Assembly (NCBI GenBank): GCA_964508365.1 | Contig: CAZDTP010000026.1 | Coordinates: 1 to 49,397 of the forward strand | Length of the DNA: 49,397 bases | Reading direction: 5' to 3' | From: an uncultured archaeon | GTDB taxonomy: Archaea; Asgardarchaeota; Lokiarchaeia; Sigyniarchaeales; SOKP01 | Shown: one piece after another, positions 7,857-17,439 of the stretch | Layout: every line of letters begins with the position of its first letter | How positions within the stretch are numbered: the first letter of the stretch is position 1 | The notes under the pieces: generated by a model | Seen by the model: the letters and a program-made list of their open reading frames with translations, nothing else | What the model was told of the DNA's origin: nothing | The model's database searches: none | Position numbers and translations under genes: made by a program

Positions 7857-9263
7857 TTACTGTTTTTCTATTGCTGTGATAATTTTTTCAAGTTTTTCTA
7901 TCATATTTTTTGAGTTTTTCCCGAATAATCTGATAATTGGTTCTTTACCCATTGCCCCCTTATCCCATATTATATCAGGTATTTTTCCAGATCGCTCTAC
8001 GCTTTCTTTAATTAACCATTGCATGGTAGAAAATTCTTTTTTTTTGATTTCGAGGGGTTGATTTTCCCTAATTATTTCTTGCAAATCTAAATCAGTGTTG
8101 TGTTGAATTGCTTTTATCCAATCTGGGTTGTACTTCAGATTCGTGACAAAATTAATCGATTTATCGTATTCTTTAGCAGAGAGAATCAAACGTGCAGTAT
8201 GATCTGATACTCCGAATTTGATTTCTCCAGACGCTTGAGGATATCCATTGATTAGAGTTATTCTACCTTCTATAGCAGCAATATCTTCTTGAGTTGTTGC
8301 TGATTGCAGTGATCCAGAAATGTTCATTCTGACTTCCGGAATTAAGATGCTGAATTTCTTCGATTTCGAAATATAATTGTAAACTTCTTTAATTTGGTTT
8401 ATTACTCTAATTTTTGGTTCAGAAAGGGTTAAGTCTACGATCCTTCCTTCATTAGGTAATTCGATGAATTTTTGAAATCGAGAATCAAAGAAAGCTTCTG
8501 CTTTTTCGATAGCTACTCTAATGGGATAACCTTTCGCAAGAAATCCCGTTATTGCAGAAGAAAAAACGCACCCCGTACCGTGAATATTTCCTTTAAGAGA
8601 GAGTTTCGGTTTTGTATAAGTCCTGAAATCGAAATTTTCTTCTCTTTCACCGTTCCTTCCGATGCATACTAAATCAAAGACTTTGTCTATAGTTGTTCCG
8701 GCACTCTTAATAACTACTGCTTTTTCTTCTTTAGGATGTTTACCTTCTATATGTAATTTTTCTACAAGGATTTTGGCTGCATTTTTGAGTTCCTCGATAT
8801 CGGTTTCATGCTTATTAAGCAAGTCCGAGTTAGTGTAAAAACTAGCTTCATTAACATTTGGAGTAAGTATTTTAAGGTGAGGAAACAAATCTCTTTCTAT
8901 TTCCAATTCCAGTCCTTCTCTCGAAATCCTAGCACCTGCGCTAGAAACCGAAACTGGATCTAATACGGTGATTAATTCGTATTTTTTCACATTTTCAACA
9001 ATTATAGCTAAAGCTTTTATGTCGGGAATCATTCCTATTTTGACGTATTTAACTGGGTAACTTCCTAAAATTGAGTCCAACTGGTTATCTAGATCGTCAG
9101 AGAGAGATTTGTATCCTATAAATTCAGTCGCGTTTTGATATGTGATAGCTGTAATTGCTGAGAAAGGATGAACTCCGCATCTATCAAATGTCCTAATATC
9201 TGCTTGAATACCCGCACCAGAGGTAGGATCTGAACCCGCTATTGTTAAACAAAAAGTTTTCAT
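7857..9263 (-). CDS. thiDN: Bifunctional HMP/HMP-P kinase and thiamine-phosphate synthase (ThiD-ThiN fusion)
   Basis: N-terminal IAGSDPTSGAGIQAD, TPNVNEA and HGTGCVFS (ThiD); C-terminal IPEVRMNI, IAAIEGRI, FGVSDH and GAMGKEP (ThiN). Confidence 0.92.
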   Translation of the reverse strand: MKTFCLTIAGSDPTSGAGIQADIRTFDRCGVHPFSAITAITYQNATEFIGYKSLSDDLDNQLDSILGSYPVKYVKIGMIPDIKALAIIVENVKKYELITVLDPVSVSSAGARISREGLELEIERDLFPHLKILTPNVNEASFYTNSDLLNKHETDIEELKNAAKILVEKLHIEGKHPKEEKAVVIKSAGTTIDKVFDLVCIGRNGEREENFDFRTYTKPKLSLKGNIHGTGCVFSSAITGFLAKGYPIRVAIEKAEAFFDSRFQKFIELPNEGRIVDLTLSEPKIRVINQIKEVYNYISKSKKFSILIPEVRMNISGSLQSATTQEDIAAIEGRITLINGYPQASGEIKFGVSDHTARLILSAKEYDKSINFVTNLKYNPDWIKAIQHNTDLDLQEIIRENQPLEIKKKEFSTMQWLIKESVERSGKIPDIIWDKGAMGKEPIIRLFGKNSKNMIEKLEKIITAIEKQ

Positions 9264-9289
9264 ACTATAATATTAGTAAAACTTAAATC

Positions 9290-9865
9290 CTAATTAACTC
9301 TTTCATAAGCCCATTTGGCTTTATCGTCCAAACCTAGAGCTTCATATGCCTTTGCAAGAAATAAAAATCCGTCAGGATAATTATAATTCTCTTTTACTAA
9401 TTTAAATAATTGATTAATGGCAAGATCAAAGCGTCCTCGCATGTAATTTATCTTACCTTTTAGGAATAGAATATCCTGATCTTTTTTATTTGAAATGTTC
9501 TTATCTTCGTGCAATTCTAACCGCGATAAAGCATAGTCATACTCTTGTTCGTTAATTAGGATATTAATAGATTCGATGAATTTTTGAAAAGTCATTTTCG
9601 AGGCAACGACTTCCATTTTTTTTAACTCCTCTTTTTTGAGTTCGTTATCTAATGTTGCTAGCTTCTCATCTTCTCTAAATTTTATAAAATCTTTGAATTC
9701 ATCAAGCACTCCATTTGGATACGGTTCTCTACATAACGGACAATTAGGAGAATGAAGAAGCCATTCCTTCAAACAATCAGAGTGAGCTGGATGCCCGTTA
9801 GGACAATCGTGAGAAGAATCTACGCCTTTAATGATACCCAAATGACAAATTATACAAGTAGCCAT
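9290..9865 (-). CDS. RING-H2 zinc finger plus TPR protein (candidate E3 ligase)
   Basis: C-x2-C-x13-C-x3-H-x2-H-x2-C-x3-W-x6-C-x2-C at the N-terminus; TPR-like helices ILFLKGKINYMRGRFDLAI and FLFLAKAYEALG. Confidence 0.88.
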   Translation of the reverse strand: MATCIICHLGIIKGVDSSHDCPNGHPAHSDCLKEWLLHSPNCPLCREPYPNGVLDEFKDFIKFREDEKLATLDNELKKEELKKMEVVASKMTFQKFIESINILINEQEYDYALSRLELHEDKNISNKKDQDILFLKGKINYMRGRFDLAINQLFKLVKENYNYPDGFLFLAKAYEALGLDDKAKWAYERVN

Positions 9866-9968
9866 GTCAATCAGAAAACTATTTAATAAATTATAAAATT
9901 ATTATTTTTAAGTATATGTTGTTTTTAATATTTCACTCTAATATATTCGTATTACCCTCGAATCGATT

Positions 9969-11534
9969 ATGCCTTTAAACAAAAAATATTTGTTCAATGA
10001 GCTCCTAACAAAATTTTTATTAATGTATGAAGATGTAGAAGCTTTGATTGTATCCGATCATGAAGGATTTATAATTGCTGGGCAAAAAAGAGCAACTATT
10101 GATATGGAATTAGTATCTGTTTTAACAGCTTTAATCAATCCTATTTTAGGAAGAATTAGAGAAGAATTTGCCTTCAAAAAATTTGGATCAGCGAGTTTTG
10201 ATACCGAAAACAATCGAATGTTGTTTATATGTATTGACGAGGATATAACCCTTAGCGTAGTCTTAGATGCAATGGCTTCTACTGATAAAATTAGCCCCTA
10301 CGCTTACTTTCTTGCAGAGAAAACAGCTCAAATTATTAACGCAAGCGAGGAAGATATTATTCAGCTTGATATACCTCACTTTGGAACGGAGATTGATACT
10401 ACGAGTGAAGTAGGTAGAATAAAAGAACAGATTTATCAAATGCGTTTAGATTCTGGAGGAATTTATAAATTTAAATTTATAATCGTGGGCGATGAAGCTG
10501 TGGGAAAATCTTCAATTGTAAGAAGATTTGTAGAAAATAAATTTTCTCTTGATTATAGGGCTACTCTTGGCTTAAATGTCCTCTCTCATTCATTAAACTT
10601 CTATGGTAATGAAGTCTACTTTTCGCTTTGGGATGTAGGAGCACAGGAGTATTTCAAACGCTTTAGAAAGACTTATTATATAGGCACGCAAGCTGCTTTC
10701 ATTGTGTTCGATGTTTGTAAAAGAGATTCCTTTGCAAATGTGAAAGTATGGTATAAAGAACTTGAAAATTTTCTCCGTAAAAAAAATATCCCAATAGTAA
10801 TTGTAGGCAATAAAATAGATTTAGCAGATCAGAGAAGCGTCGTATATCAAGAGGGTATTGAGCTTGTTCAAGAGCTCACAAAGGAGAATACTGAAACTGA
10901 CTTCTCTTACATTGAAAGTAGCGCATTAACGGGCGAAAATATTGAGGACGCGTTTAGCTTAATAGCATATCATTATATAATGAAGAACAAAGAGAGAGAG
11001 GAGCAAAAATTAAAAACGAACTTAATGGATCAAATCAATTCGTTATTAAATAAAAGAGCAAAATTAACCATCTCTTTTATTACTGAAAACCCATACTGGA
11101 GCCCCGGATTGCAAATACTAAATGATGTGAATTTATTATTTGAGTGTGAAAAACTAATAGATGATAAAGATAAAAGATTGTATGAATACTCCAACGGGCT
11201 AATTATTAAGAATTTTTTATTCGATAACATAGATGTTAAAGATTCTGACGGTGTATTTGTCATATTTAACGCCAGAAATAAAAAGCACATAGAGCAAAAA
11301 TGGAAAGATGTGGTTGTGAACATAATAAGCAATTTAAAAGAAAATAAAGTTGCACTAATTGGCGTGAGAGTATCAGAAGAAACCGATTGGTCAAATATCA
11401 TGGAAGAATTTAATGTTAATCAATATTTAGAGAAGAAAATGGTATCTCTTTTGTTTTTTAAGATTGGTTTCGAGTATAGACTTGAAATATACGATCAACT
11501 TGATGTGATGTTTAGTACAATTACAAACTTATGA
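9969..11534 (+). CDS. Roadblock/LC7 domain plus Rab-like small GTPase plus degenerate GTPase-fold C-terminal domain
   Basis: Roadblock-like VEALIVSDHEGFIIAG; G1 GDEAVGKS, G2 YRATLG, G3 WDVGAQ, G4 GNKID, G5 SSAL; C-terminal ~160 aa follow a GTPase-like strand/helix order. Confidence 0.9.
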   Translation: MPLNKKYLFNELLTKFLLMYEDVEALIVSDHEGFIIAGQKRATIDMELVSVLTALINPILGRIREEFAFKKFGSASFDTENNRMLFICIDEDITLSVVLDAMASTDKISPYAYFLAEKTAQIINASEEDIIQLDIPHFGTEIDTTSEVGRIKEQIYQMRLDSGGIYKFKFIIVGDEAVGKSSIVRRFVENKFSLDYRATLGLNVLSHSLNFYGNEVYFSLWDVGAQEYFKRFRKTYYIGTQAAFIVFDVCKRDSFANVKVWYKELENFLRKKNIPIVIVGNKIDLADQRSVVYQEGIELVQELTKENTETDFSYIESSALTGENIEDAFSLIAYHYIMKNKEREEQKLKTNLMDQINSLLNKRAKLTISFITENPYWSPGLQILNDVNLLFECEKLIDDKDKRLYEYSNGLIIKNFLFDNIDVKDSDGVFVIFNARNKKHIEQKWKDVVVNIISNLKENKVALIGVRVSEETDWSNIMEEFNVNQYLEKKMVSLLFFKIGFEYRLEIYDQLDVMFSTITNL

Positions 11535-11590
11535 AATCTTACATTAAATATTAGTGAAAGTTAGTATAAAAGATTAATAATTTCTAATAA

Positions 11591-11608
11591 CTACTTTTAA
11601 AAGCAAGT
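11591..11608. promoter_or_regulatory. 18-bp motif CTACTTTTAAAAGCAAGT, copy 1 (palindromic core CTTTTAAAAG) upstream of the Rab-like GTPase
   Basis: Identical to 14731-14748. Confidence 0.6.
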
Positions 11609-11733
11609 CAAATTATTACATATTTTAAGAAATTAGCATGTTTTTCTTGAAATTAACAAAAATTTAAATAATTTTTGTCTATTATTTTATCACACCTCTG
11701 TATTGAAATTAACAGTGAAAAAAGTTGAGTCCT

Positions 11734-12267
11734 ATGGGAGAAATAGCTTATAAAATATGTATATTTGGAGAAAGTGGAGTAGGAAAATCTACTTTAGCAC
11801 ATCGTTATTTAAAAGGTTATTTCGAAGAGGACATAAAACTTACGATGGGTGCTGAAATTTTTGTGAAATATATCAATATAGAGAATATAAGAGTGGTTCT
11901 GCAAATTTGGGATTTTGGGGGTGAAGATGAATTTAAATTCCTATTACCTTTGTACTCTAAGGGATCATCTGGTGGAATTTTCATGTTTGATCTGAGTAAT
12001 AAAGCGCCATTAAAAAATATTGATGGCTGGATCGAGACTTTTAAGAAAGGTTTAGCATCTAGTGAAAAAGAAATTCCAATATTAATGGTTGGGGGGAAAT
12101 TAGATCTGCAAGATCAAATTGCCATAACTGAAAGCGAAGCAGTAAGCATCGCGAAAGATCTTAATCTGTATCAATATATCGCATGTTCTTCTAAGTCAGG
12201 TGTAAATGTTGAAATTATTTTTGAAACATTAGTAAGAGACATTTTGAGATTTCAGAATTTAATCTAA
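11734..12267 (+). CDS. Rab-like small GTPase, single domain, no prenylation motif
   Basis: G1 GESGVGKS, G2 KLTMG, G3 WDFGGE, G4 variant GGKLD, G5 CSSK; ATG 11734 preferred over TTG 11725. Confidence 0.93.
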   Translation: MGEIAYKICIFGESGVGKSTLAHRYLKGYFEEDIKLTMGAEIFVKYINIENIRVVLQIWDFGGEDEFKFLLPLYSKGSSGGIFMFDLSNKAPLKNIDGWIETFKKGLASSEKEIPILMVGGKLDLQDQIAITESEAVSIAKDLNLYQYIACSSKSGVNVEIIFETLVRDILRFQNLI

Positions 12268-12361
12268 ATAATTAAATATTTCGCATTAATATTACACTTG
12301 AATTTGATAGCTTTTTTGCACCTATAAAAACTATTTGAGACTTTATTTAATGAGATAACAA

Positions 12362-13495
12362 ATGTTTGCACAAATTGAATATGGTAAAGAACTACAGTTT
12401 CTAGCTTATTTAGTTCCGGTTATAATGGGTATTCAATTAACTATTTATTTTTATACACAATATAAGAAACTTAAAGATAAGGATCTTCCGCTCAATATTA
12501 TTTTATTAGCATTTGGTTCGTTTATTTTATTCATGGTTATTGGTGCTTTATTTATTCAAATTGCGAGAAATTTTATTGTGAATGAGACCATTTATGAAAT
12601 AGTTTATAGAATTGGTTGGGTATTAGCTTTTTTTTCTACGATATCTTTTTCAAGATTCATTATCCTTGAGGAGTTTAATTTAATTATTAATCTAAAAGTT
12701 GCGAAAACTTTAGTGATACTAAATTTTATACCAATTTTTTGCGTTTTTATTTTACCCTCATTACAGTCTCCAATCTTTATTGGAAGTATTTTTTTTGTCG
12801 TATTGAATGGTTTATATATAATTAGATTTCAAATAATATTGATCCAAAAATCAATAGGAAGGATAAGAACAAAAATTAGATTTTTTTTCATTGGAGCTTT
12901 GATTAGTCTCATTGCATTAGTTTTTGCTATAATTGTGGGATTACGCTTTTTACCTCCAATTATTAATGAAATTGTGTATTTTACAGGAGTACTGAATCTA
13001 TTTATAGGTTTCTTGATAATTTATTTTTCAGTTTACAATTTTCCACCTTTTTATGAATTTGAGTGGCGTGAGAATCTTATTAAACTTTTTATTTTTAACC
13101 CCAAAGATTTTAAGAGCTTATATCATTTGGATTTAGTTCAAAATTCTCATACAAATAATTATGCCGAAAATATTGATAGGCTTTTTTCAAAAGGAATATC
13201 TGGAATTGAAAAAATAATTACTAGAATTACTAATACAAAGACAGAGAGAATAGATAAGATACAGCAAGACGATTTTCTAATAATGTTTGAGTATGGAAAT
13301 GTTCCTATTTCATTAATTTATGTTTTAATTGTTAAAAAGGATTTAATTAGTTCAAAACATTTATTAAAAATCATTAGAATACGATTTGAATCATTTTTCA
13401 AGGAAATATTATTAAATTTAGATAATATAGAGGAAGATCAAGAAAAAATATTTATTAGCTTTAATAATATAATGGAAAATATATTACGAGGATGA
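12362..13495 (+). CDS. 7-TM membrane protein with C-terminal soluble longin-like domain
   Basis: Seven hydrophobic segments in aa ~11-225, then FPPFYEFEW and a soluble domain (LFIFN...LFSKGISGI...IDKIQQDDFLIMFEYG...IYVLIVKK...RFESFF). Confidence 0.75.
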   Translation: MFAQIEYGKELQFLAYLVPVIMGIQLTIYFYTQYKKLKDKDLPLNIILLAFGSFILFMVIGALFIQIARNFIVNETIYEIVYRIGWVLAFFSTISFSRFIILEEFNLIINLKVAKTLVILNFIPIFCVFILPSLQSPIFIGSIFFVVLNGLYIIRFQIILIQKSIGRIRTKIRFFFIGALISLIALVFAIIVGLRFLPPIINEIVYFTGVLNLFIGFLIIYFSVYNFPPFYEFEWRENLIKLFIFNPKDFKSLYHLDLVQNSHTNNYAENIDRLFSKGISGIEKIITRITNTKTERIDKIQQDDFLIMFEYGNVPISLIYVLIVKKDLISSKHLLKIIRIRFESFFKEILLNLDNIEEDQEKIFISFNNIMENILRG

Positions 13496-13532
13496 TGAAA
13501 TTATTTTTCCTATAACCGATCCACTAAGATTT

Positions 13533-14609
13533 GTGTCTTTAATATTGGAATGGATTTTTATCATTTTGTGTTTTGAATTAGGATTATATTTTCAAATAAA
13601 ACATAAAAAGCAACCAGTGCAGATTAAAAATTCACAAAATGTTGGATTTTCCGCGCTATTTTATGGAATTTCACTTTTGAGATTCTTTATATTAATAGGG
13701 GATTATTATGCTATTGGAACGATAACTTCCCCGTTTTTAATTTGGTCAAGTGGGAGTTTTAGATTTGTATTTTTAAATTTTGGATATTTATCAATAAATT
13801 TTGGTTTCTTACTGTTTACTTTTTGTATGGAAAAATATAAAAAATTCTTTTTCAAAAAATATTTTTTCACTTTTTGCTTTTTAATACAAATTTTTATTCT
13901 CATTTCTATGGTTTTAATCGATCTTTTTAGTATTCTTTATCTATCAGTTTTATTATTACCGCTTTTCATCATATTTCTGCTTATCTATGCTATAGATTTT
14001 GATAAACAAGGTAAAAAACAAAAGATACTTCCTAACATTGGTTTGAAAATGGGATTCTCAATTCTACTTATGTTATCTGGTCATATACTTACAATAGATT
14101 TTGTTTGGTATTATTATGGATTCATAACTAGATTAACCGGAATTAGTATGCAGCTTATCGCGATTGGTTTGATTTTTAAAATGTTCAGAAATGTTTTTCC
14201 CTTTTTTGAATTTAACTGGCACGATAAAATCGAAAATATATATATTTTGAATAGAAATGGGATTAATCTATATAGCAAATCTTTTTTAGAAGAAAGAAAA
14301 ACTATCGATGAACAGGTCATATCTGGAGCATTATCATCAATAAATATTATGCTTAATGAATTAATGAATACCAAAGAAAATAAAATTTTGATCATTAAGA
14401 AAAAGAATAAAATAGTAACTATTTTTGCAAGTGTTTATATTATTGGTGTATTAATTAGCACAGAGGAACTAGAATTTTTTAAGCATAACATTAAGAGATT
14501 AGTTTTAAAAATTGAAACACTCTATAGAAACCTGCTAATCAATTGGAATGGAGATAGAACCCAATTTTATCCAGTAAAGGATATTGTGACTGATATCTTT
14601 TCAATGTGA
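13533..14609 (+). CDS. 7-TM membrane protein with C-terminal longin-like domain (paralog of the upstream gene)
   Basis: Seven hydrophobic segments, then FPFFEFNW and a longin-like pattern IYILNRNGINLYSKSF...DEQVISGALSSI...IGVLIS...IETLY...NWNGD. Confidence 0.8.
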   Translation: MSLILEWIFIILCFELGLYFQIKHKKQPVQIKNSQNVGFSALFYGISLLRFFILIGDYYAIGTITSPFLIWSSGSFRFVFLNFGYLSINFGFLLFTFCMEKYKKFFFKKYFFTFCFLIQIFILISMVLIDLFSILYLSVLLLPLFIIFLLIYAIDFDKQGKKQKILPNIGLKMGFSILLMLSGHILTIDFVWYYYGFITRLTGISMQLIAIGLIFKMFRNVFPFFEFNWHDKIENIYILNRNGINLYSKSFLEERKTIDEQVISGALSSINIMLNELMNTKENKILIIKKKNKIVTIFASVYIIGVLISTEELEFFKHNIKRLVLKIETLYRNLLINWNGDRTQFYPVKDIVTDIFSM

Positions 14610-14730
14610 ATAGATTTTTTCTAATTCTTTCTTTGAAATCTACGACCAAATTGAAGTAATGTTTAATTCTATCATAAACCTCTAAACTTTTCCCAAATTT
14701 TGTAAACTAAAACTTTATAAATTGAAAAAG

Positions 14731-14748
14731 CTACTTTTAAAAGCAAGT
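14731..14748. promoter_or_regulatory. 18-bp motif CTACTTTTAAAAGCAAGT, copy 2 upstream of the second roadblock-GTPase
   Basis: Identical to 11591-11608. Confidence 0.6.
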
Positions 14749-14813
14749 TGTGTTATATTTATGATAAGACGAAGTTTTTCTTTGTCTAAACCAAAAAAAG
14801 GTGTAAAATTCAA

Positions 14814-16370
14814 TTGTTAGGAAACAAGCAAAAGTTTTTTAACGTTATCCTTAATAATTTCTTGGAGCGGTTTTCCGAAATAGATGCTATTATTATCTCA
14901 GATCTTGAAGGTTTCGTGATCGCTGGAGAAAAAAGGAAGGATATTGATAGTAACATCGAGATCATCTCTGTTCTAACAACCCTTATTAACCCTATTTTAG
15001 AAAGGATAAGAAATGAATTCAGTTTCAAGAAATTCGGAACTGCTTCGTTCGACACGGATGAACATCGCTTATTGTTTATTACAATAGACGAAGAAAGAAT
15101 TTTAAGCTTAATTTTTAATAGCATGGCATCAGTTGAAAAAGTGGCACCCTATACCTATTTTTTAGCCGAGAAAACTGCTCAAATACTTAACATGCAAGGG
15201 AATGAATTAGTCCAGCTAGATATCCCCGATTTTGATTCTGAAGCAGAAAGGCATGAAAAACTTAAAGAATCTATATGTCAATCAGAATTAGATGAGTGTG
15301 CTAATTATACCTTTAAATTTATTATCGTAGGATCACACGAGGTAGGAAAAACTTCTTTAATCCGACAATTCGTAGAAAAAAAGTTTTCGCACGATTACCG
15401 AGCAACTATAGGATTAAATATTTTTGCTCATAACTTTAACTTTCAAGGAAACGAAATTCATGTCCAGCTCTGGGATATAGGCGCGCAGCAATATTTTAAA
15501 AGATTTCGCAAGATATACTACAGCGGTGCAGAAGCGGCTTTTATTGTTTTTGATATTACTAATAGAGAATCATTTGATAAAATCAAAGTGTGGCATGGAG
15601 AGATAAATAAGCTCATTGATGAGAAAAATATCCCTATAGTTATCGTGGGAAATAAAATCGATTTATCTGAGCAACGAGTAGTATCCACAGCTGAGGGAGA
15701 GGAATTAGCGAAATTACTTTCAGAAACCTACTTAGAAACCAGCGCTCTTACTGGTGAAAATGTGATTGACGCTTTTGAATTAATTGCTTACCACTATATC
15801 ATTAAAACCAAAAAAAAGGAAAAAGATGTAATTCGAGAAGATTTAACCAAAGCTATTCTCTCAACCTTAAAAGAACTAGTTATTTTAGAATTAACATTCA
15901 TATCTGAAAATATGAGTTTGAATCCAGGTTTCCAAACAGTAATTAATCTAGAGAACCTCGGTGAATATTCAAAACTAAAGGATGGCAATGAAGAAAAATT
16001 ATATACTTATAAGAACGGTCTAATCTTAAGTAGTTTTACCTATAATAATTTTAATTTAGCTAATTCGGACGGAGTATTCTGCATATTCGACGCTCGCGAT
16101 AGAGAACACATTGATCCTAAATGGAAGGATATACTCATTAATATAATTAGAAAAGTGAGAAAGAAACGCGCTGTAATTGTAGGTATTCGAGTATCTGACG
16201 ACAAAAACTGGTCTCAGTTAATGGAAGAATTTTTAATCGATAAGGATATAGAAGAGAAGGTTGTGTCGGTTCTATTCTTAAAAATTGGTCCAGACTATAG
16301 AGAAAAAATATACGAACATTTGAAACTAATGCTAGATGTTATACTTACCACGAGAAAATTAAAATATTAG
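14814..16370 (+). CDS. Roadblock plus Rab-like GTPase plus degenerate GTPase-fold protein, paralog of 9969-11534
   Basis: IDAIIISDLEGFVIAG; GSHEVGKT, YRATIG, WDIGAQ, GNKID, TSAL; collinear with the first paralog over the full length. Confidence 0.9.
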   Translation: MLGNKQKFFNVILNNFLERFSEIDAIIISDLEGFVIAGEKRKDIDSNIEIISVLTTLINPILERIRNEFSFKKFGTASFDTDEHRLLFITIDEERILSLIFNSMASVEKVAPYTYFLAEKTAQILNMQGNELVQLDIPDFDSEAERHEKLKESICQSELDECANYTFKFIIVGSHEVGKTSLIRQFVEKKFSHDYRATIGLNIFAHNFNFQGNEIHVQLWDIGAQQYFKRFRKIYYSGAEAAFIVFDITNRESFDKIKVWHGEINKLIDEKNIPIVIVGNKIDLSEQRVVSTAEGEELAKLLSETYLETSALTGENVIDAFELIAYHYIIKTKKKEKDVIREDLTKAILSTLKELVILELTFISENMSLNPGFQTVINLENLGEYSKLKDGNEEKLYTYKNGLILSSFTYNNFNLANSDGVFCIFDARDREHIDPKWKDILINIIRKVRKKRAVIVGIRVSDDKNWSQLMEEFLIDKDIEEKVVSVLFLKIGPDYREKIYEHLKLMLDVILTTRKLKY

Positions 16371-16374
16371 ATTT

Positions 16375-17439
16375 TTACGCTTTTAGCTTATTTTTAAGTT
16401 TAACAGAAATTAGATCACCCATTTCTGTCGTGGTAAGTGTTTTTAAGCTATCATTTTTAATGTCAGTAGTCCTTCCTTCTAATAAAGCCTCTTCAACAGC
16501 ATAATCTATATCATTTCCTATTTCGGATGAATTAAACGATTCTTCGAACATTAATTTTACGCTTAAAATCGTGCCTATAGGATTTGCAATTCCTTTTCCA
16601 GCAATATCGGGGGCTGAACCATGAATTGGTTCGTACATTGACACTTTTCCGGGATGAATGTTTCCACTTGAGCCCATTCCCAGACTTCCTATAAGGAAAG
16701 CGCCTTCGTCGCTAATAATATCTCCAAACATATTTCCTGTGACTACCGTTTGAAATCTATAGGGTGCTCTTATTAGCCACTGGGTAAATGCATCAATGTA
16801 TATATCTTCCGTTTCTATGTTTGAATAGTTTCCACTCATTTCGTGAAAAATTTTTCTCCATAATTTACTTGTATACAAAAGATTAGCCTTATCAACGGAG
16901 GTAACAATTTTATGGCTCTTTCTTTTTGCAAACTCAAACGCAAATTTAATTATCCGCTCGCAACCGTATCTGGTGTAAAGCATTAAGTTCTCTGCTGAAT
17001 CTTCTCCCAAATTACCAATATTCTTATAAAGCCCTTCAGTATTTTCCCTCACAAAAGTAATGTCAATACCACTTCCTATAAACTCGCTTTTTAAAGGACA
17101 TTTTTCGCGAAGTACATCATATAATTTAATGGGTCTCAAATTAATATACAAATCTAATTCTTGCCGTATTTTCATAATAGCACTTTCTGCTACACCAGGG
17201 GATAAATCAGGCAAACCAAGAGCACCAAACAATAGTGCATCAGAATTTTTTATGACTTCAAACGATTTGTCTGGAAGGTTAGTTCCAAATTCTTTCCACA
17301 CTTCTCCTCCTGCTGGCGCGTCTTTAAATTCAAAATCATAATCAGTGAACTCTGAAACGATCTTGAGAATTTTAATTCCTTCGTTCACAACTTCGGGGCC
17401 GCAGCCATCACCACGAGTGATTGCTATTATTTTCTTCAT
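16375..17439 (-). CDS. leuB: 3-isopropylmalate dehydrogenase-family (beta-hydroxyacid oxidative decarboxylase)
   Basis: GDGCGPEV, LYINLRP, RENTEGLY, NMFGDIISD, EPIHGSAPDIAGKG. Family is secure; LeuB versus homoisocitrate-type specificity is not. Confidence 0.8.
   Translation of the reverse strand: MKKIIAITRGDGCGPEVVNEGIKILKIVSEFTDYDFEFKDAPAGGEVWKEFGTNLPDKSFEVIKNSDALLFGALGLPDLSPGVAESAIMKIRQELDLYINLRPIKLYDVLREKCPLKSEFIGSGIDITFVRENTEGLYKNIGNLGEDSAENLMLYTRYGCERIIKFAFEFAKRKSHKIVTSVDKANLLYTSKLWRKIFHEMSGNYSNIETEDIYIDAFTQWLIRAPYRFQTVVTGNMFGDIISDEGAFLIGSLGMGSSGNIHPGKVSMYEPIHGSAPDIAGKGIANPIGTILSVKLMFEESFNSSEIGNDIDYAVEEALLEGRTTDIKNDSLKTLTTTEMGDLISVKLKNKLKA

Follow-up and report, generated by a model that had tools for sequence, protein, structure and literature searches.

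Do the six genes that lie together at positions 9290 to 16370 of a contig from an uncultured archaeon (Asgardarchaeota; Lokiarchaeia; Sigyniarchaeales; SOKP01) form one signalling circuit, and what might the two membrane proteins at their centre do? The window, by which we mean the whole stretch of 49,397 nucleotides that was analysed (contig CAZDTP010000026.1 of assembly GCA_964508365.1), belongs to a genome of 4.07 Mb with a G+C content of about 31%, here called G000; other G numbers denote relatives (G255, G244, G245, G257 and so on) and L numbers denote fetched loci. A gene for a RING-H2 and tetratricopeptide repeat (TPR)-like protein diverges here from five co-oriented genes with short spacers (Table 1): gene A, which encodes a roadblock-GTPase fusion, sG, a Rab-like small GTPase, TM1 and TM2, two seven-transmembrane (7TM) proteins with a soluble tail, and gene F, a paralog of A. 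A first-pass annotation had described this gene content, order and orientation, with the RING gene divergent across 103 bp, and the open reading frames (ORFs) match it exactly, while its three Rab-like GTPases are borne out by Pfam Ras matches in A, sG and F. It had also taken the six genes for a single self-contained unit. We propose instead that the locus is made of two nested modules, the RING-TPR gene with A and F (module 1) and the sG-TM1-TM2 cassette (module 2), and we lean towards the view that TM1 and TM2 pair as a longin heterodimer to bind sG, their own GTPase, and to regulate it.

The TM1-TM2 pair and its GTPase

TM1 and TM2 are homologous over their full length (99.7% in an hhalign comparison of the two families, E 2.6e-26, 343 columns), and neither has a Pfam or NCBIfam family match. 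The TM1 family counts 92 matches in a set of 5.8 billion proteins, the named ones all being Asgard, and in the ESM Atlas TM1 occurs among Promethearchaeota clusters only; the TM2 family has 391 representative matches. When we collected 45 TM-pair loci from several families of the class, we found a TM1-type gene followed by a TM2-type gene on the same strand in 45/45, usually with a gap of 3-15 nt, and where copies are multiplied they multiply as pairs (L009, L014, L015 and L024). In a maximum-likelihood tree of 108 sequences, the TM1 and TM2 genes of the class fall into one clade each (SH-aLRT 99 and 90, respectively), and the sub-clades of the two are mirrored; single, unpaired 7TM-longin genes, found in GTDB families f31 and f19 of the phylum, make up a separate clade. 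TM1 and TM2 are ancient, co-diverging paralogs, and the two 7TM-longin genes that the first-pass annotation had pointed out are, with their constant adjacency and mirrored clades, an obligate-looking pair.

A Ras-family gene flanks the TM pair in 24 of the 45 loci, mostly directly upstream and co-directional. For comparison, Ras-family matches number 61 across the roughly 4 Mb of the G000 genome, so that chance alone would put a GTPase gene at a given flank in a few percent of cases. The linkage spans three GTDB families of the class (f1, f4 and f7), and the association with GTPases suspected in the first-pass annotation can now be put more precisely, a Rab-like GTPase being the conserved partner gene of the TM pair. 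Orthologs of sG itself, defined by at least 61% identity, are patchy (13 of 134 other genomes of the GTDB family), and in every genome with enough contig the sG ortholog adjoins a TM1 ortholog of the matching sub-clade, as seen in G255, G244, G245, G222, G250, G181, G217, G190, G185, G183 and G206; in G191 and G198 the sG ortholog is cut by the contig end. In G250, which belongs to the genus of the window, TM1 and TM2 both group with those of G217, a member of another genus, with an SH-aLRT of 97 in both clades (L047, L046). This grouping and the patchy distribution hint at lateral movement of the whole cassette.

The product of sG is recognised by Pfam Ras (1.4e-37), and its best solved relatives are a Thorarchaeota Rab, Rab39B, Ypt6 and Ypt7. 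Its nucleotide-binding motifs comprise G1 GESGVGKS, the switch I Thr40, G3 DFGG and G5 SSK, and in G4 GGKLD stands instead of NKxD, a replacement (GGKxD) that most of its orthologs share. The position of the catalytic Gln is occupied by Glu (DFGGE), as it is in 9/13 relatives. The C-terminus, ...RFQNLI, contains no Cys and thus offers no Rab-type prenylation site. More distant GTPases linked to TM pairs retain Gln, and N or T, at the two positions where sG departs from the usual motifs.

What the TM proteins might offer to such a GTPase is suggested by their predicted folds. The AlphaFold2 (AF2) model of TM1, built with 37 homologs, has a mean predicted local distance difference test score (pLDDT) of 77.9 and consists of seven helices followed by a soluble tail of about 150 residues, the two parts being joined across TM1 and TM2 by an invariant FPxFxEFxW linker. 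In the modelled tail the secondary structure assigned by DSSP (E239-245, E252-257, H267-290, E299-302, E305-311, E319-324, H329-345) runs b-b-a-b-b-b-a, which is the order of a longin domain, with the flanking helix C-terminal and not N-terminal. When we compared TM1 residues 234-377 with solved longin domains using VIA, we obtained Z 10-12.8 at a root-mean-square deviation (rmsd) of 2.7-3.4 over 107-130 residues. The top matches were a CPLANE subunit (Z 12.8, rmsd 2.8, 123 residues aligned), synbindin (11.9) and SRX (11.8), and further ones were the N-domains of adaptor protein (AP) mu and sigma subunits (Z 10-11.5), Sec22/VAMP7 (11.3-11.4), Mon1-Ccz1 (10.4-10.8) and TRAPP Trs23/Bet5. No roadblock structure was found among the best 50 structural matches of the tail, which does not argue against a roadblock kinship. 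The sequence signal for a longin domain is weak, yet it agrees with the fold match: the TM2 family profile weakly matched TRAPP Trs23 in the PDB (E 0.012), the Pfam family Sybindin was matched below threshold in 5/43 family members (best E 0.0013), and Clat_adaptor_s and the Intu/Fuz longin families gave sub-threshold singleton matches. The gathering threshold of the longin Pfam families (Sybindin, Longin, Clat_adaptor_s, Intu/Fuz_longin_1) was not reached by TM1, TM2 or any family member. The C-terminal domains that the first-pass annotation had called longin are thus modelled as a longin fold and not as some other one.

Over 37 homologs, Lys and Arg amount to 9.4 on loops 1, 3 and 5, compared with 2.7 on loops 2, 4 and 6 together with the N-terminus, and because of this excess on the odd loops we place the tail in the cytoplasm, so that the predicted topology of TM1 and TM2 is N-out/C-in. 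The invariant columns of TM1 lie mostly in loops, and there is no conserved intramembrane charged cluster. The 7TM part of TM1 resembles adhesion and class C G protein-coupled receptors (GPCRs) and rhodopsins (Z 10-13 by VIA, with 12-13 for the GPCRs; Foldseek E 0.01-0.08), a likeness within the chance range of helical bundles.

Several peculiarities of the TM genes and of their relatives came to light. Ahead of its called GTG the TM2 frame stays open over another 20 codons (13473-13532) and encodes P-I-T-D-P-L-R, which aligns with the conserved N-terminus of TM2 homologs whose starts lie about 15-17 residues earlier. No ATG, GTG or TTG occurs within this segment, and an ATT or ATA start or a shortened TM2 N-terminus are both possible; the same gap separates TM1 from the called start of TM2 in other members of the genus. 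In G241 and G222, TM2 is split into two ORFs, possibly by frameshift or decay (variants at L020, L050 and L060), and G167 has two copies of TM2 after TM1. One TM pair of G272, besides having a small Ras-family gene of its own, is found at a distance of 1.5 kb from a gene for a 502-residue Gtr1/RagA-type GTPase with an N-terminal extension (L013:4893-6401). A related longin-like tail is also borne by two further polytopic membrane proteins of G000, one of 547 residues with about 10 hydrophobic segments (G000:C65:7850-8929; L003:1471-3114, reverse strand) and one of 610 residues (G000:C7; L005:46-1878, forward strand). The former has a sub-threshold Sybindin match (E 0.009) and is flanked by two low-molecular-weight phosphatase genes, and neither has a GTPase gene within about 1.4 kb on either side.

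The predicted sG-longin complex and its readings

We modelled both longin tails together with sG, taking sG as the scored partner and running 3 controls. The complex scored 0.86 against 0.61 for the best control, a mark that in calibration, which used two-chain jobs with other alignments, was reached by 58/80 solved complexes and by 2/110 mismatched pairs. At least 71% of contacts are shared between the runs, the pLDDT of the partner is at least 76, and unrelated partners scored 0.00. The predicted interface involves residues 30-47 (switch I), 58-62 (interswitch strand) and 69-82 (switch II) of sG and the alpha-1 helices of both longin domains, with TM1 G278, G281, I282 and I285 and TM2 G243, S264-G265-A266 and G340 among the interface residues; within the soluble domain, conservation is highest at the longin residues that make these contacts. 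No invariant arginine occurs in the predicted interface, TM1 position 273 being K15/R8 and TM2 position 241 K24/R7 in the families. When TM1 was replaced and sG and TM2 were kept, the score was still 0.61, and for this reason TM2 would be the main contact of sG. The modelling thus goes some way with the first-pass annotation, which had suggested a complex prediction, in that it sets the sG switch regions on the longin pair.

From these predictions a mechanism can be outlined. TM1 and TM2 would assemble as an integral-membrane heterodimer whose paired longin alpha-1 helices form a GTPase platform at the membrane surface; through contacts of this platform with the interswitch strand and both switch regions, I and II, of sG, the TM pair would recruit the soluble GTPase, which has no lipid anchor, to the membrane and control its nucleotide state. 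By analogy, the most likely activity of the pair on sG would be that of a guanine nucleotide exchange factor (GEF), a preference that we hold because the closest structural relatives and the weak sequence relatives are longin GEFs and because the interface has no invariant arginine.

A number of points weigh against this proposal. The case is made from sequences and models, and nothing in it separates a GEF from a GTPase-activating protein (GAP), an effector or a plain anchor. About half of the TM-pair loci are without an adjacent GTPase gene, and G270 has TM1 and TM2 without an sG ortholog. The longin part of the TM1 model is of moderate confidence (pLDDT 58-84, with residues 261-281 below 50), and the likeness of the 7TM part to GPCRs is one that helical bundles reach by chance. 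The complex may have passed through its likeness to solved longin-GTPase complexes (Mon1-Ccz1-Ypt7, TRAPP-Ypt1, SRX-SRbeta), its calibration comes from jobs of another kind, and, as the control without TM1 illustrates, the score measures the fit of sG and not the contribution of TM1 or heterodimerisation. With Glu for the catalytic Gln and GKxD for NKxD, the cycle of sG may be unusual. Finally, the nesting of the cassette in module 1 could still matter functionally in this lineage.

The strongest competitor, to which we give a minor but real share of the probability, keeps the contact and changes its outcome: the longin pair would bind sG as a GAP or, in the way SRX does with SRbeta, as a receptor or anchor specific for the GTP state, and the 7TM proteins would be effectors or landmarks. 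The structural and genomic evidence set out above fits this reading equally well, the TM1 tail has SRX as one of its best structural matches (Z 11.8), and a GTPase without the catalytic Gln may hydrolyse slowly or need help in trans. On the other hand, the lack of an invariant interface arginine speaks against a GAP of the arginine-finger type, and the nearest weak sequence signal leads to longins of the TRAPP Trs23/Bet5 type, which are GEF subunits. Somewhat less probable, and in our opinion unlikely, is a bolder form of the exchange-factor proposal in which TM1-TM2 is a receptor gated by a ligand or by the state of the membrane and the longin tails are the exchange factor of sG, that is, a one-step archaeal receptor-GEF. 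If this were true, eukaryotic longin-heterodimer Rab GEFs would have integral-membrane Asgard relatives, possibly ancestors, with dedicated GTPases.

The 7TM parts could also be transporters, channels or enzymes, with the longin tails as handles by which sG controls a membrane activity. Related longin tails do sit on other membrane cores in G000, namely the 547- and 610-residue proteins, and the match of the 7TM part to receptors does not rise above the helical-bundle background; nevertheless we regard this as improbable, since no transporter or enzyme family in Pfam or NCBIfam was matched, the best 7TM matches are receptors and rhodopsins and not carriers, and the invariant columns include no charged cluster within the membrane.

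Two nested modules

Whether the TM pair also acts on A and F, as a single circuit would imply, is a question about the locus as a whole, the features of which are listed in Table 1. Its outer neighbours are unrelated housekeeping genes, ThiD/ThiN and a homolog of isocitrate/isopropylmalate dehydrogenase (IDH), as identified by Pfam.

Table 1. Features of the six-gene locus, with positions in the window and residues of the encoded proteins
Feature	Position	Strand	Residues	Remarks
RING-H2 and TPR-like gene	9290..9865	-	191 aa	module 1
Divergent spacer between RING gene and gene A	9866..9968			103 nt; from ORF coordinates
Gene A	9969..11534	+	521 aa	module 1
A, roadblock domain (predicted)	9969-10346		1-126	fold match at residues 3-126
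A, Rab-like GTPase domain	10455-10997		163-343	Pfam Ras; Foldseek
A, P-loop-less Arf-like G-domain fold ('X', predicted)	10998-11531		344-521	structural match
40-nt direct repeat, copy 1	11569..11608	+		34 nt past the A stop; left edge of inserted cassette
A/T-rich TATA-like element upstream of sG	11658..11676	+		travels with the cassette
sG, Rab-like small GTPase	11725..12267	+	180 aa	module 2
TM1	12362..13495	+	377 aa	module 2
TM1, seven transmembrane helices (predicted)	12380-13033		7-224	hydropathy and AF2 model
TM1, linker	13040-13066		227-235	FPPFYEFEW, invariant
TM1, longin domain (predicted)	13067-13492		236-377
TM2	13533..14609	+	358 aa as called	module 2
TM2, linker	14193-14219		221-229
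TM2, longin domain (predicted)	14220-14606		~230-358
40-nt direct repeat, copy 2	14709..14748	+		66 nt upstream of F, directly past the TTTATAAAT box
Gene F, paralog of A	14814..16370	+	518 aa	module 1
F, same three domains as A	~14814-15188, 15297-15818, 15825-16367

When we compared the locus among relatives, we found the sG-TM1-TM2 cassette between A and F only in G000, G255 (TM1 98% identical) and G244 (86%) (L026, L027). In G245, G190, G187 and G264 the order is ThiDN, then RING diverging from A, then F and IDH, and G245 (TM1 73% identical) carries the cassette on a different contig (L028), its A-F-RING genes being intact (L029). Leaving aside the three close relatives, we compared 42 TM-pair loci, and their fetched flanks contained no gene of the A/F or RING type. 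The spacer between A and F is filled otherwise in G257, with cargo on the opposite strand (L030:2004-5121) comprising a Methyltransf_11-like protein, a radical SAM/SPASM protein and two small related ORFs. The six-gene locus is composed of two independent conserved modules, one nested in the other. The single unit of the first-pass annotation does not withstand this comparison, as the sandwich is restricted to three genomes and elsewhere A adjoins F, the cassette lies in another part of the genome, or, in G257, a radical-SAM cassette fills the spacer; what does survive of the conserved neighbourhood is each of its halves, sG-TM1-TM2 and RING-A-F, and not the six-gene order. The two small G257 ORFs encode 81 and 95 residues with one TM segment each, and the layout resembles a peptide-maturation cassette like those of ribosomally synthesised and post-translationally modified peptides.

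A 40-nt direct repeat brackets the cassette in G000, its two copies being 80% identical and the last 18 nt identical, and the motif also occurs upstream of F in G244 and G257. The TATA-like element that lies within 70 nt before sG also precedes sG in G245, where the cassette is not inserted, and may serve as its promoter. As the element is shared with the non-inserted G245, the repeat is present and the arrangement is restricted to three genomes, the simplest reading is an insertion: the cassette would have moved into the A-F spacer, in the leader region of F, in the common ancestor of the three genomes, bringing its own promoter-like element along. An alignment gave no clear sG-upstream element shared beyond genus g1, and we found no empty donor site for the cassette, the G245 flanks mapping in G000 to a contig end (C117) and to contigs C23 and C14. 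We also observed that the repeat copies match within a genome and differ between genomes, with ...AAAAGCAAGT twice in G000 and ...AAAAATAAG twice in G244, a pattern that points to gene conversion, or to a binding site that the two transcription units have in common at their starts.

These observations bear directly on the view that all six genes are one receptor-GEF-GTPase circuit, with the TM pair acting on A, sG and F and the RING ligase as output or feedback. The five genes are indeed co-oriented with short spacers, an arrangement kept in G255 and G244, and the copy of the F-leader motif before the sG cassette, in the same variant as the other copy of each genome, makes co-regulation conceivable. 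However, we hold such a circuit to be improbable, for the arrangement is confined to three close relatives, A/F or RING genes are near none (0/42) of the other TM pairs, about 100 genomes conserve A-F-RING in the absence of the cassette, and the G257 spacer takes unrelated cargo while the cassette retains an upstream element of its own. Least credible of all is that sG and the TM pair merely hitch-hike together without physical contact, the predicted interface being an artefact of modelling two families that are known binding partners, for although memory of known structures can let a complex pass and about half of the TM-pair loci have no GTPase neighbour, the sG and TM1 orthogroups co-occur strictly and side by side despite a patchy presence (13/134), the linkage extends over three GTDB families (f1, f4 and f7) and the interface coincides with the best-conserved residues.

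With the cassette and its proposed longin platform set apart, module 1 can be considered in its own right. A homolog of the RING gene is present as a single copy in 117/134 genomes of the GTDB family, and in about 100 of the 117 it lies 1.1-1.9 kb from the X domain of A, that is, immediately beside A, as counted by eye from the coordinates of both family searches. The divergent arrangement of RING and A was also observed in L026, L027, L029, L030, L031, L032 and L034, so the RING gene that the first-pass annotation saw backing the locus is a conserved neighbour of A. Its match to Pfam zf-RING_2 scores 30.4 bits, above the cut-off of 27.3, whereas its TPR matches are sub-threshold, and a C3H2C3 RING-H2 pattern can be read from the sequence (C4-x2-C7-x13-C21-x3-H25-x2-H28-x2-C31-x10-C42-x2-C45). 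The product is of the RING-H2 type and is a putative E3 ligase.

A and F share 51% identity over their full length and match Pfam Ras at 1e-42 and 5.9e-48, respectively. In the AF2 model of A (mean pLDDT 66.6) the G domain is poorly modelled and the C-terminal fold has a pLDDT of 70-91. Residues 3-126 show the order a-b-b-a-b-b-b (DSSP: H5-19, E23-30, E35-40, H46-66, E73-78, E83-88, E93-99), and their structural matches by VIA are roadblock proteins: MglB (Z 14.9), a Streptomyces roadblock (14.5), MK-D1 Roadblock3 (14.2) and MP1-p14 (13.7). By Pfam sequence search the roadblock domain gave MAPKK1_Int alone, with an E of 0.056. The middle domain is closest to Rabs (30-37% identity; Thorarchaeota Rab 34% by Foldseek). 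Residues 351-521 matched HodArfR1 (Z 13.8, rmsd 3.4, 163 aligned, 9% identity) and Arf/Arl proteins (Z 12.2-12.4) by VIA, and the P-loop GxxxxGK[ST] is absent from residues 344-521. Because it combines a predicted Arf-like G-domain fold with a sequence that has no P-loop, the X domain of A and F is, on the model, a pseudo-GTPase. Its family is nearly universal in the GTDB family (124/134 genomes); in four other families of the same order it was met once only (f2 1/1, E 3.2e-16; f3 and f4 none), and it was not found in the other families of the class, f5-f7. In at least 30 genomes the X domains of A and F lie 1.6-2.2 kb apart, a spacing from which we conclude that A and F are directly tandem genes there, as they also are in loci L029, L031, L032, L033 and L034. 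Neither protein has a C-terminal Cys of a prenylation motif. A and F are probably a Rag-like pair joined by their roadblock domains, and this heterodimer would have the RING-H2/TPR protein as a partner.

In A and F the G3 motif is W-D-[VI]-G-A-Q (in A at window positions 10632-10649), with Gly and Ala swapped in comparison with the usual DxxGQ, and its residues D222, G224, A225 and Q226 are invariant in 18/18 aligned homologs. An Rfam search of positions 9000-16600 gave no match. The opposite-strand ORFs at 11030-11401, 14114-14395 and 14810-15124 sit within conserved coding regions and were rejected as genes.

Relation to known systems

The nearest counterparts of the proposed TM1-TM2 platform are the longin-heterodimer Rab GEFs, namely Mon1-Ccz1, BLOC-3 (Hps1-Hps4), CPLANE (Fuzzy-Inturned) and the TRAPP core (Bet5-Trs23), in which paired paralogous longins present their alpha-1 helices and a sheet edge to the Rab switches. 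TM1-TM2 resembles them in its top structural matches (Z 10.4-12.8), in a predicted interface of the same kind and in the weak Trs23/Sybindin signal. Exchange activity is a property of those GEFs, and what TM1-TM2 can set beside it is a predicted switch-region interface. The differences are considerable: TM1 and TM2 each carry one longin after the 7TM domain, whereas the subunits of the tri-longin GEFs (Mon1-Ccz1, BLOC-3 and CPLANE) have three in succession, and the pair has no Bet3-type subunits, is encoded in a putative operon with its GTPase and, being fused to a 7TM domain, would be an integral and not a peripheral platform.

A second parallel is the receptor of the signal recognition particle (SRP), where the longin SRX of SRalpha sits on SRbeta-GTP and thus likewise brings a longin onto the switches of a small GTPase at a membrane. 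SRbeta, like sG, is without the canonical catalytic Gln. In the SRP receptor, however, the GTPase is anchored, the longin protein is soluble and there is a single longin, which is the reverse of TM1-TM2 and sG with their longin pair. In the longin GAPs (GATOR1 NPRL2-NPRL3, FLCN-FNIP and C9orf72-SMCR8) a paralogous longin heterodimer acts on a small GTPase at a membrane, as we propose here. Longin-domain GAP complexes employ an arginine finger and have DENN or other extra domains (PMC12290439); TM1-TM2 differs in having neither an invariant interface Arg nor a DENN domain. The comparison with GPCRs and heterotrimeric G proteins is an analogy only: seven helices, an N-out/C-in topology and a cytoplasmic face that would act on a GTPase. 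Neither TM1 nor TM2 matches a GPCR family in sequence, the likeness of the bundle is at background level, and the GTPase would be Rab-like and contacted by the fused longin, not by the bundle.

Module 1 calls to mind the Rag heterodimers (RagA/B-RagC/D, Gtr1-Gtr2), A and F being two paralogous roadblock-fused GTPases encoded side by side. The roadblock is the dimerisation module of Rag proteins, and for that of A the structural comparison gave Z 12.9-14.0 with the Rag C-terminal domain and with LAMTOR structures. In contrast to Rag proteins, A and F have the roadblock at the N-terminus (the order being reversed), a Rab-like G domain and an extra C-terminal pseudo-G domain. Fusions of a roadblock with a GTPase have been described in the Asgard archaeon MK-D1, where GTPase genes are generally not in operons with roadblock or longin genes (Tran et al. 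2024, PMC10933270), and the architecture of A and F, with the roadblock N-terminal to the G domain, is of this MK-D1 type. Another Asgard operon encodes a LAMTOR1-like roadblock protein, a Rab-like GTPase and a DENN protein (Liu et al., bioRxiv 10.1101/2020.10.19.343400). Neither of these two reports mentions a membrane-embedded longin or 7TM partner, and in the text consulted no additional P-loop-less G-domain fold is mentioned either. Actinobacterial conservons (CvnA-D) are operons of a membrane sensor-type protein, a roadblock-superfamily protein and a Ras-like GTPase (PMC13343842), but they differ in having a histidine-kinase-like membrane protein, a separate MglB-type roadblock gene and no 7TM-longin fusion, and they belong to an unrelated lineage. 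We found no description of a 7TM-longin fusion or of its GTPase operon in the Asgard literature, in which a 2026 preprint lists '7TM proteins' among the Asgard eukaryotic signature protein families without detail. The core trio of sG, TM1 and TM2 is a variant of longin-platform/GTPase systems that we have not found described in print.

Small GTPases number in the dozens in Asgard genomes, which also encode many longin and roadblock proteins; how regulators are paired with GTPases, and how anchor-less GTPases gain access to membranes, are open problems, and the layout of the genome is rarely of help according to Tran et al. 2024. The cassette gives a one-to-one assignment of one GTPase to two membrane-embedded longin proteins, with a predicted interface of conserved residues, and thereby names a candidate membrane partner for an archaeal small GTPase. 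The RING gene and the roadblock-GTPase-pseudoGTPase pair are a module of their own, far more widely conserved, in which a Rag-like pair would have a neighbour of the ubiquitin-ligase type.

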